Source: Alphaproteobacteria bacterium
GTDB lineage: Bacteria > Pseudomonadota > Alphaproteobacteria > Bin95
Assembly: GCA_022825195.1 (NCBI GenBank)
Contig: JAJDYL010000101.1
Span: 7,740-71,739 of the forward strand
Length of the DNA: 64,000 bases
Direction: 5' to 3'
In this document: piece by piece, positions 1,935 to 2,969 of the stretch
Layout: every line of letters begins with the position of its first letter
Numbering within the stretch: the first letter of the stretch is position 1
Program-made: the position numbers and the translations under genes
Notes under the pieces: model-generated
Told to the model about the DNA's origin: nothing
Database searches by the model: none
Seen by the model: only the letters and a program-made list of their open reading frames with translations

Positions 1935-1960
1935 CGCCCGGGCCTAACCGGGTTTCCGCG
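1935..1960. terminator. Weak bidirectional hairpin between convergent genes (cccgg-gcctaa-ccggg followed by ttt)
   Basis: Inverted repeat seen directly in the 10-nt gap between the two converging stop codons. T-run is short, so weak. Confidence 0.25.
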
Positions 1961-2969
1961 CAAGCACGAAATACATCGGCGTGAAGATGCCGAGCCGTCC
2001 GGCCTCCGCGAGGGCGCCGGCGGCGAGATTGAGCAGGGCCGAGACCCGGGTTGTGCCGCGCGGCACGAGTCTCAGCCGTTCGAGCAGCCAGAGCGAACCA
2101 TGGGTCACACGGCGGCCGGCGTCGGAGCTGCGGACGCTGGCGAAAGACAGGCCCGAGCCGGTGAGGGGCTGGTACCAGGGGATCCCCGGCGGCGCCTCGG
2201 CAGCCAGGTCGCGGGCCTCGACCAGCTCGAAGCCGGCATCGCGGACGGCGGCGTCCACCTCGTGCGGCCGGGCGATATCGGGCAGACCGCCGCCATGCTC
2301 CATCTCGGCCTTCAGCCGCCGATGGCCGGGATCGGCACCGTCGAACCGGTCTGTCAGGCAATATTCGTATACCGCCATCTGGCCGCCGGGCCGGAGCAGG
2401 CGAAAGGCTTCGCCATAGACGCCCTTCTTGTCCGGCGCGCAGCAGGTCGCCTCGATGGAATAAGCGGCATCGAACGAGGCGTCGGGCGCATCGACCCGCA
2501 TGAAATCGCATTCGATCCAGTCGGCCAGATGGCCGAGCCCCACCTCGTCGCAGCGCCTTGCGGCGCGTTCGAGCTGCAGCGCGTTGTTGTTGACGCCGAC
2601 GATCCGGGCGCCGGAAAAGCGCGCAATCTCGATCAGCGGCCCGCCCACGCCGCACCCCAGATCGACTGCCGTCATGCCCGGCGCCAGGCCGAGACGGTGG
2701 GCGACATAGTGCTCGTGCCGGGCGAGCGAGGCGGCGAAACTTTCGTTGGCGGCGCGCGGCGCGAAATGGAACGACTGGCCCCAACCATATTCGAAGAAAT
2801 CGGTGACCAGGTCGTAATAGGTGTTCTCGAAATTCCGGTAGTCCGTCTTGCGCTCGTCGAGGCTGTCCTGCGCTGCGCCGCCGTAACGGCGGGCATAGTC
2901 CTCGATGCGGGCGGCGACGCAGTCCCCGCCGCTTCCGTCCTTCAGGATGCCGGTAAGCCTGCGCGCCAT
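1944..2969 (-). CDS. Sterol 24-C-methyltransferase (ERG6/SMT family, class I SAM-dependent methyltransferase)
   Basis: 341 aa. Blocks [43 protein letters not shown] (SAM motif I), [18 protein letters not shown] and C-terminal [12 protein letters not shown] are near-identical to motifs I recall from yeast ERG6 and plant SMT1. Confidence 0.9.
   Translation of the reverse strand: [341 protein letters not shown]

Follow-up and report, generated by a model that had tools for sequence, protein, structure and literature searches.

A predicted sterol C-24 methyltransferase gene in an apparent operon with a GPP34-P450 fusion in an alphaproteobacterial genome

Bacteria are known to carry sterol methyltransferases (SMTs) of the kind represented by yeast ERG6. 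Brown, Olagunju, Giner and Welander (Nat Commun 2023, PMC10070321) expressed 24 bacterial SMTs recovered from metagenomes and found most of them active; members of this family methylate desmosterol and 24-methylenecholesterol in vitro, and three of the expressed enzymes made 24-isopropyl sterols. An enrichment of SMTs in symbionts of the sponge Ircinia has already been reported. Separately, a two-domain protein called GPP34_L, which joins a GOLPH3-like GPP34 domain to a cytochrome P450, has been reported from sponge symbionts exclusively and is proposed to help them evade phagocytosis by the host (Microbiome 2025, PMC11706023). Here we describe a 64,000-nucleotide stretch of an Alphaproteobacteria bacterium genome (assembly GCA_022825195.1, contig JAJDYL010000101.1, positions 7,740 to 71,739), hereafter the window, in which a predicted SMT gene and a GPP34-P450 fusion gene are neighbours. 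As far as the literature we searched goes, this physical link has not been described before. Brown et al. (PMC10070321) never mention GPP34, P450, Rieske proteins or transport, and a full-text search of the literature that combined GPP34, sponge and sterol returned nothing relevant. The published account of GPP34_L (PMC11706023) speaks of neither sterols nor methyltransferases, whereas the copy in the window shares an apparent operon with an SMT gene.

The SMT gene is a single intact open reading frame, from ATG to stop, that spans exactly positions 1944..2969 of the minus strand and encodes 341 amino acids. We put the probability at roughly 0.8 that its product is a functional sterol side-chain methyltransferase, dependent on S-adenosylmethionine (SAM) and belonging to the SMT family of bacterial sponge symbionts. 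A first-pass annotation of this stretch had proposed an ERG6-type sterol 24-C-methyltransferase here. The interval it gave was right and the strand needed correcting; translated from the plus strand, the same coordinates yield nonsense. Its proposal of an ERG6-type enzyme is borne out by a match to the Pfam Sterol_MT_C profile, by 42% identity to yeast ERG6 and by a full set of 25 conserved residues, each of which we describe below.

The five motif blocks quoted in the first-pass annotation are all found in the protein, at residues 51-70, 76-88, 172-179 (IEATCCAP), 264-271 (PWYQPLTG) and 329-340. They share 15/20, 12/13, 7/8, 7/8 and 8/12 residues with yeast ERG6, i.e. 49/61 in total (80%), so the near-identity of these blocks to yeast ERG6 that was put forward in the first-pass annotation holds. 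Over the whole protein the identity is 42% across 327 aligned residues (BLASTP E 2e-95). The ERG6 reference for these comparisons was checked only through the positions given in a recent preprint (bioRxiv 10.64898/2025.12.19.695621), of which its numbering reproduces all 25 conserved positions as well as D249, Y81 and Y83.

Those 25 residues, which the preprint lists as conserved in functional SMTs, are all identical in the window protein (MAFFT alignment, ERG6 numbering). The sterol-binding motif of Region I, (Y/F)E(Y/F)GWGxxFHF, runs from F59 to residue 69, and the SAM-binding motif of Region II, DxGxGxxGP, is present as D103, G105, G107, G110 and P111, equivalent to yeast D125 to P133. The protein shares Regions I to IV with yeast ERG6, as well as the C-terminal domain. 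It differs from the yeast enzyme in being without about 22 N-terminal and 14 C-terminal residues, in lying in an apparent bacterial operon, and in having F81 and G249 (yeast numbering) in place of Y81 and D249, positions that govern repeated methylation.

Profile searches place the protein in the same family. Sterol_MT_C (PF08498) matches residues 277-340 with 81.1 bits against a cut-off of 21.7 (E 6.3e-23) and covers 64 of the 66 profile positions, and the Methyltransf_11 (class I methyltransferase) domain of Pfam is matched too. NCBIfam holds no SMT model. One could instead suppose a cyclopropane-fatty-acid (CFA), tuberculostearic-acid or mycolic-acid methyltransferase, since the Pfam CMAS profile gives a partial match of 44.9 bits, above its cut-off of 27. 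We give that reading next to no credence, as the NCBIfam equivalog models for CFA and mycolic-acid enzymes reach just 21-30 bits against cut-offs of 390-650, Sterol_MT_C and the Region I motif are both present, and the closest homologues point the same way. A search of 5.8 billion proteins returned 2,815 relatives, and the best 120 of these, 64-85% identical to the window protein, all carry Sterol_MT_C. The profile and BLASTP comparison with ERG6 and SMT families that had been suggested as a check thus favours a sterol methyltransferase, and the best homologues are not the fatty-acid and mycolic-acid enzymes that had been named as the alternative outcome.

The named sources among the best 120 are metagenome-assembled genomes (MAGs), namely of Rhodospirillales, Defluviicoccus, Nitrospinae, Dadabacteria and Palauibacter. 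When species-representative genomes were scanned, 274 relatives were returned; the 80 retained all come from MAGs, many of which were binned from the sponges Aplysina, Ircinia and Rhopaloeides, and those nearest to the window protein are labelled Alphaproteobacteria. Two contigs whose SMTs have been assayed also appeared among the metagenome matches, namely Ga0209021_1000146 from Aplysina (locus L098 in our numbering of fetched loci) and LXNJ01000389 from Petrosia (L095), with SMTs 58% and 56% identical to that of the window. These are the only 2 of more than 30 published assayed SMTs that mapped onto fetched loci. When 132 SMTs were placed in a neighbour-joining tree with ERG6 as the root, the protein of the window fell in a clade of 31 members that are at least 67% identical to it, nested inside an 89-member bacterial clade that also contains the two assayed enzymes. 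The SMT of Ga0209021_1000146 is probably the second propylating Aplysina enzyme.

No SMT structure was found in the PDB by sequence or by fold search. The AlphaFold model of the window protein (pLDDT 80) shows the fold of class I methyltransferases, and the closest solved structures in Foldseek are mostly natural-product methyltransferases (TleD, AtmM, MitM, SpnF and RebM). Two of the similar proteins, TleD (Foldseek E about 1e-17) and geranyl pyrophosphate (GPP) C-methyltransferase (about 1e-14), both methylate an isoprenoid C=C bond by way of a carbocation, as an SMT would be expected to do; the target-normalised TM-scores against these two are 0.63-0.76. They differ from the window protein in having no sterol C-terminal domain and are only 17-24% identical to it. 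The other top matches, AtmM, MitM, RebM and SpnF, are not olefin methyltransferases.

Because Sterol_MT_C outscores CMAS, the CFA and mycolic-acid models stay far below their cut-offs and the nearest relatives are bacterial SMTs, of a family with members active in vitro, we assign the window protein to the bacterial sterol side-chain methyltransferases; on its sequence it adds a new member, so far unassayed, to a known family. It resembles the enzymes of Brown et al. (PMC10070321; bioRxiv 10.64898/2025.12.19.695621) in protein family, in ecological source and in all 25 functional residues. From the established chemistry of the family, the enzyme would take a methyl group from SAM and attach it at C-24 to the side chain of a delta-24 sterol; loss of a proton would then give 24-methylene or 24-methyl products. 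A second or third carbon might also be added, giving 24-ethyl or 24-isopropyl products. Such repeated methylation is conceivable because residues 81 and 249 are Phe and Gly.

In the numbering of the window protein these residues are F59 and G227, the latter in the sequence EHGGGLP, while position 83 is a Tyr (Y61). G249 together with F81 and/or F83 is reported to be needed, yet insufficient, for 24-isopropyl formation (bioRxiv 10.64898/2025.12.19.695621). Gly is the commonest residue at position 249, found in about 100 of 137 family sequences; 45 of the 137 combine it with Phe at 81 and/or 83, among them the closest alphaproteobacterial relatives of the window SMT. The protein is like the propylating enzymes of Brown et al. 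in having G249 and the Region I Phe, and unlike them in sharing just 5/11 of the residues typical of propylating SMTs (G249, A152, L343, E350 and F362). The remaining six positions differ and read N68, E175, R180, R217, A284 and H290. For most of the listed positions other than 249, the mutants described in the literature changed little.

Several published results weigh against too confident a reading of activity or product. The preprint lists 11 SMT homologues that showed no activity on the two standard substrates, although four of the 11 kept every conserved residue; it also records three active enzymes that carry F81/F83 and G249 and make only C28 or C29 sterols, and one further enzyme with these residues that is inactive (bioRxiv 10.64898/2025.12.19.695621). 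Furthermore, the assayed SMTs that could be mapped fall outside the 31-sequence clade of the window protein. The sequence leads us to predict an active enzyme that may add more than one carbon; in light of these exceptions, in which the residues do not predict propylation and intact homologues are inactive, we make no firmer call of the product.

The same observations bear on whether the enzyme might be an SMT with another regiochemistry or substrate (C-26, C-28 or C-4), or one without activity on the usual delta-24 substrates. Roughly one in three of the tested bacterial homologues did not act on desmosterol and 24-methylenecholesterol, some without an obvious sequence defect, and the aplysterol-type sponge sterols call for a 26-methyltransferase. 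The SMT family also includes a nematode C-4 methyltransferase (PMC6997595). We nonetheless regard both possibilities as unlikely here, for the protein is canonical in Region I, in Region II, at E195 and at the rest of the 25 conserved residues, and C-24 methylation was found for 8/10 of the assayed SMTs from sponge symbionts and 12/14 of those from the environment (PMC10070321). A better candidate for odd chemistry is a divergent type of SMT (M81/W83/I249), which is a different gene and is not in the window.

This divergent second type is an observation in its own right. It sits in related islands, at positions 8527-9561 of the minus strand of L081, a complete 5.38-Mb chromosome, and also in L014, L018, L021 and L089. 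It has M81, W83 or F83, and I249, and its identity is about 35% with ERG6 and about 39% with the SMT of the window. We consider it a candidate for other regiochemistry, e.g. the undiscovered 26-methyltransferase. In L081 the extra gene is flanked by two copies, at 8324-8508 and 9716-9902, of about 187 nucleotides from the 3′ end of the P450 gene (76-79% identity), which looks like the scar of an insertion or a duplication. In the window, the SMT gene follows directly on the 3′ end of the P450 gene.

A high similarity of the motif blocks to yeast (80%) could also suggest eukaryotic DNA, of a sponge or an alga, that was misassembled or placed in the wrong bin. This explanation is barely tenable. 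The gene has no introns, its GC content at third codon positions (GC3) is close to that of the host, its stop codon lies 9 nucleotides from that of a convergent bacterial LolA-like gene, and about it are 64 kb of bacterial genes and a bacterial tRNA. The same arrangement is found on multi-megabase bacterial chromosomes, and the overall identity is 42% to ERG6 compared with up to 85% to bacterial homologues. The view that the gene is not a eukaryotic contaminant therefore stands, with the ordinary bacterial genes of the window, the bacterial tRNA and the operon structure all in its favour.

The argument from codon composition that had been offered for this view is right for the SMT gene and does not extend to all of its neighbours. 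GC3 of the SMT gene is 0.83, compared with 0.88 +/- 0.03 for 30 host genes (z = -1.4), and the adjacent LolA-like and RND genes are likewise host-like (z = -1.5 and +0.2). In contrast, the genes for the P450 fusion, a Rieske protein and a flavoprotein have GC3 values of 0.68-0.73 and z scores of -4.6, -4.7 and -6.1, respectively, the flavoprotein value of 0.68 being the minimum of the window. By composition these three genes are clearly foreign. Total GC falls to 0.56-0.58 at 4-8 kb compared with about 0.68 elsewhere in the window, and the same dip is seen in L081. Since the three genes differ in this way from the host-like SMT and transporter genes, they may have been acquired later than the SMT.

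The closest of these neighbours is the fusion gene, at 3116..5143 on the minus strand. Its product of 675 amino acids combines a GPP34 (GOLPH3-like) domain (Pfam, 93.5 bits) with a cytochrome P450 domain (113.7 bits), the same two-domain architecture as the GPP34_L proteins of sponge symbionts (PMC11706023). The start was fixed by a 99% identical homologue of 675 amino acids, and the gene ends 146 nucleotides upstream of the SMT gene on the same strand. Its P450 domain has retained both the heme cysteine motif (YGLGTHRCLG) and the ExxR motif (ECLRMYP). In the I-helix region, ALIASVYLGDAFS, the conserved acid-Thr pair is replaced, with Phe or Leu in place of Thr, and the loss of this Thr extends to the whole family; a regular expression for this type of motif (ASVYLGDA[LF]S) matched 83/120 of the listed GPP34-P450 homologues. 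The replacement hints at a non-standard activation of oxygen. We found no N-terminal signal peptide in the protein. An identification as CYP51 was considered and rejected, the best PDB matches reaching just 59-68 bits. At least 120 homologues have 73% identity or more, and the few source names among them include Alphaproteobacteria, Rhodospirillaceae, Opitutae and Latescibacteria.

Next on the minus strand, at 5388..6503, is a gene for a Rieske non-heme iron oxygenase with a KshA-type catalytic domain (371 amino acids; Pfam Rieske 63 bits, KshA_C 87.5 bits). Its best PDB match is KshA (92 bits), and the translation contains the CxH...CxxH and ExxxDxxHxxxxH motifs. It was rejected as an SdmA, the NCBIfam model giving 26 bits against a cut-off of 600. 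Divergent from it, at 6754..8145 on the plus strand, is a gene for an FAD-dependent oxidoreductase of the amine-oxidase/phytoene-desaturase type (463 amino acids; Pfam Amino_oxidase 54 bits, NAD_binding_8). The best PDB match of this flavoprotein is LkcE (96 bits), and it is 68-81% identical to copies at related loci across phyla. An analogy with the fatty-acid desaturase UfaD (PMC7380195) may offer a lead to its function.

On the other side of the SMT gene, and convergent with it, are two plus-strand genes that may have to do with lipid transport. The first, at 1125..1934, encodes a LolA-like/TP_0789-like protein of the periplasmic lipid-carrier type (269 amino acids; Pfam LolA_like 200 bits). 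It has an N-terminal segment resembling a signal peptide, and its GTG start at 1125 is preceded by AGGAGG; the gene is convergent with the SMT gene, the stop codons being 9 nucleotides apart. The second, at 1..1047, is the C-terminal part (349 codons) of an RND (MMPL) transporter of the HAE3 family, which matches Pfam MMPL and runs off the left end of the window with its frame open from base 1. The NCBIfam models 2A067 and HpnN match it distantly and BstA faintly. For the full-length orthologue of 778 amino acids in L081 the scores are HAE3 162, HpnN 120 and BstA 23 bits, all under the cut-offs.

The Rieske, GPP34-P450 and SMT genes form, in this order, an apparent operon with the SMT gene last. 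The operon is inferred from strand and spacing only, and scans of positions 1-8600 for promoters and terminators rose no higher than background. The functions of the P450, Rieske protein, flavoprotein and pump are putative, which counts against the preferred reading of the block. An Rfam search gave a tRNA as its sole match. This is a tRNA-Phe(GAA) at 8256..8331 on the minus strand, called by both ARAGORN and Rfam, which forms the right-hand boundary of the low-GC block.

We read the whole block as a probable horizontally mobile island in a sponge-associated alphaproteobacterium, one that would tailor sterols and move them across the cell envelope without making sterol itself. The tRNA-Phe gene abuts the island both in the window and in L081 (3252-3327). 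A direct repeat of tRNA-Phe, of the kind left at attachment sites, was sought at the far end of the L081 island and none was found, nor was an integrase found. In L015, from the Binatia, there is an odd 84-nucleotide tRNA-Phe call at 8800-8883, 1.1 kb upstream of the SMT gene.

A comparison with other genomes gives a fuller picture of this neighbourhood. When the window genes were compared by tblastn with 160 fetched loci, we found GPP34-P450, Rieske and flavoprotein genes, often together with the RND/LolA-like pair, adjoining SMT genes at 57-88% identity in Alphaproteobacteria, Binatia, Thermodesulfobacteriota, Chloroflexota and unclassified MAGs. The module recurs across at least five phyla, and identities of 57-88% between phyla are far too high to reflect vertical descent. 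On the Petrosia contig LXNJ01000389 (L095), whose SMT has been assayed, the GPP34-P450, Rieske and flavoprotein genes are present too. On the L081 chromosome, which is syntenic with the window past the right-hand side of the island, the order is tRNA-Phe, amine oxidase, Rieske, GPP34-P450, the extra divergent SMT, SMT, LolA-like (273 amino acids), RND and an outer-membrane beta-barrel gene, at which the island ends and housekeeping genes begin.

Some of the related loci place the same genes within complete pathways. L083 contains a cluster for de novo sterol synthesis made up of an FA hydroxylase, a KshA-type Rieske protein, ERG24, a CYP51-like P450, a fusion of squalene epoxidase (SQE) and oxidosqualene cyclase (OSC), three SMTs, SdmA, SdmB, an amine oxidase and GPP34-P450. 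That of L084 consists of SdmB, SdmA, ERG24, a P450, an SQE-OSC fusion, an SMT and GPP34-P450. It is mainly this embedding in the full clusters of L083 and L084 that leads us to think that the accessory genes act on sterols. Sampling from the P450 side gave four loci (L167-L169 being among the loci with the fusion), three of which have GPP34-P450, Rieske and RND pump genes and no SMT; two of these three also carry the flavoprotein, and the sources are Opitutae, Latescibacteria and an 8.9-Mb genome. The fourth has a solitary GPP34-P450 gene. As the loci without an SMT keep the GPP34-P450 set, we view the Rieske, P450 and flavoprotein genes as the core and the SMT as a frequent partner.

The SQE-OSC fusion deserves a remark of its own. 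It is about 1130 amino acids long and is found at 12424-16230 in L003, 4770-9590 in L008, 10001-13390 in L083 and 10001-13399 in L084. Most of the 120 listed matches are of fusion length, and the fusion is frequent in genomes of sponge symbionts. It is implicit in Supplementary Data 1 of Brown et al., where the same gene identifier is matched by both ERG1 and ERG7 (PMC10070321).

Where, then, would the substrate of the window enzyme come from? By tblastn, none of SQE, OSC, CYP51, ERG24, SdmA, SdmB or FA_hydroxylase is present in the 64-kb window. The published de novo cluster (ERG1/7, ERG11, ERG24, sdmAB) would show at least two known sterol-biosynthesis genes beside the SMT, which the window lacks; instead of these it has the GPP34-P450 fusion, the KshA-like Rieske protein, the amine oxidase and the RND/LolA-like pair. 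The complete island of L081 likewise contains no cyclase. With no sterol-producing gene in the window the sterol substrate is inferred, which is a further point against the preferred reading of the SMT. SQE-OSC fusion genes are widespread in sponge symbionts and adjoin close relatives of the window SMT in L003/L083 and L008. The OSC-bearing alphaproteobacterial MAGs that we identified (JAJDYF, JAPOPK and L084) differ from the MAGs that bear the island, which is weakly informative. We consider it about equally likely that the substrate is supplied by a cyclase elsewhere in the genome and that it comes from the sponge host. The idea of host sterols was raised by Brown et al. for a chlamydial SMT.

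That neither the window nor the complete syntenic island has a cyclase or another gene for sterol synthesis also leaves some room for a substrate that is not a sterol at all but another isoprenoid olefin, such as squalene, a hopanoid or a carotenoid. In Botryococcus, SMT-like triterpene methyltransferases act on non-sterol olefins, and the RND pump adjacent to the window SMT is distantly like the hopanoid transporter HpnN. Even so, we think a non-sterol substrate very improbable, given that the sterol-binding motif of Region I and Sterol_MT_C are intact, that relatives 76-81% identical adjoin oxidosqualene cyclase, CYP51 and SdmAB genes (L003/L083 and L008), and that members of the family accept sterols in vitro.

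The neighbours could in principle be read as genes of steroid catabolism, in view of the KshA-like Rieske protein, the P450 and the flavoprotein. We rated this unlikely because an anabolic SMT gene shares their operon, the flavoprotein does not belong to the KstD family and the same genes occur in biosynthetic clusters.

The rest of the window, from 8.3 to 64 kb, encodes ordinary functions such as transport proteins, CoA-transferases, dehydrogenases and ribonucleotide reductase. Between 8492 and 64000 there are many paralogous catabolic genes, e.g. three luciferase-like monooxygenases, two family III CoA-transferases and several short-chain dehydrogenases/reductases, along with an enoyl-CoA hydratase, a 3-hydroxyacyl-CoA dehydrogenase, an electron transfer flavoprotein (ETF), a sulfatase and a TRAP transporter. 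This expansion of catabolic genes would fit sponge-associated Alphaproteobacteria. A second dip in GC (0.589) lies at 54001-56000, around the 3-hydroxyacyl-CoA dehydrogenase and ETF genes, and near it, at about 53.6-54.6 kb, is a stretch without a called gene.

The 24-alkyl steranes, and especially 24-isopropylcholestane, serve as evidence of early eukaryotes and of the first animals. Bacterial SMTs weaken this use of steranes, and the first-pass annotation was right to say so; since the point was published by Brown et al. in 2023 (PMC10070321), it is not a discovery of this work. To it the window adds one unassayed SMT with the two residues required for propylation.

The added value lies in the context. 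Here an SMT gene is linked to a P450 fusion of sponge symbionts, a steroid-type Rieske protein, a desaturase-like flavoprotein and a lipid pump, in an arrangement shared across phyla. We tentatively propose, at a little less than even odds, that GPP34-P450, the KshA-type Rieske protein and the flavoprotein form a horizontally spread sterol-tailoring module that acts together with SMTs and envelope lipid pumps, and that in lineages such as this one, with no cyclase found in the island or the window, the island would take up, alkylate and oxidise host sterols. If this is true, the module may contribute to the unusual side-chain sterols of sponges.

The operon partners are more worth following than the SMT itself. 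If they do act on sterols, they would offer a testable route to the unexplained modifications of the side chain and nucleus of sponge sterols, and an alternative reading of the GPP34-P450 family. They would also bear on whether the symbionts synthesize sterols of their own or remodel those of their host.

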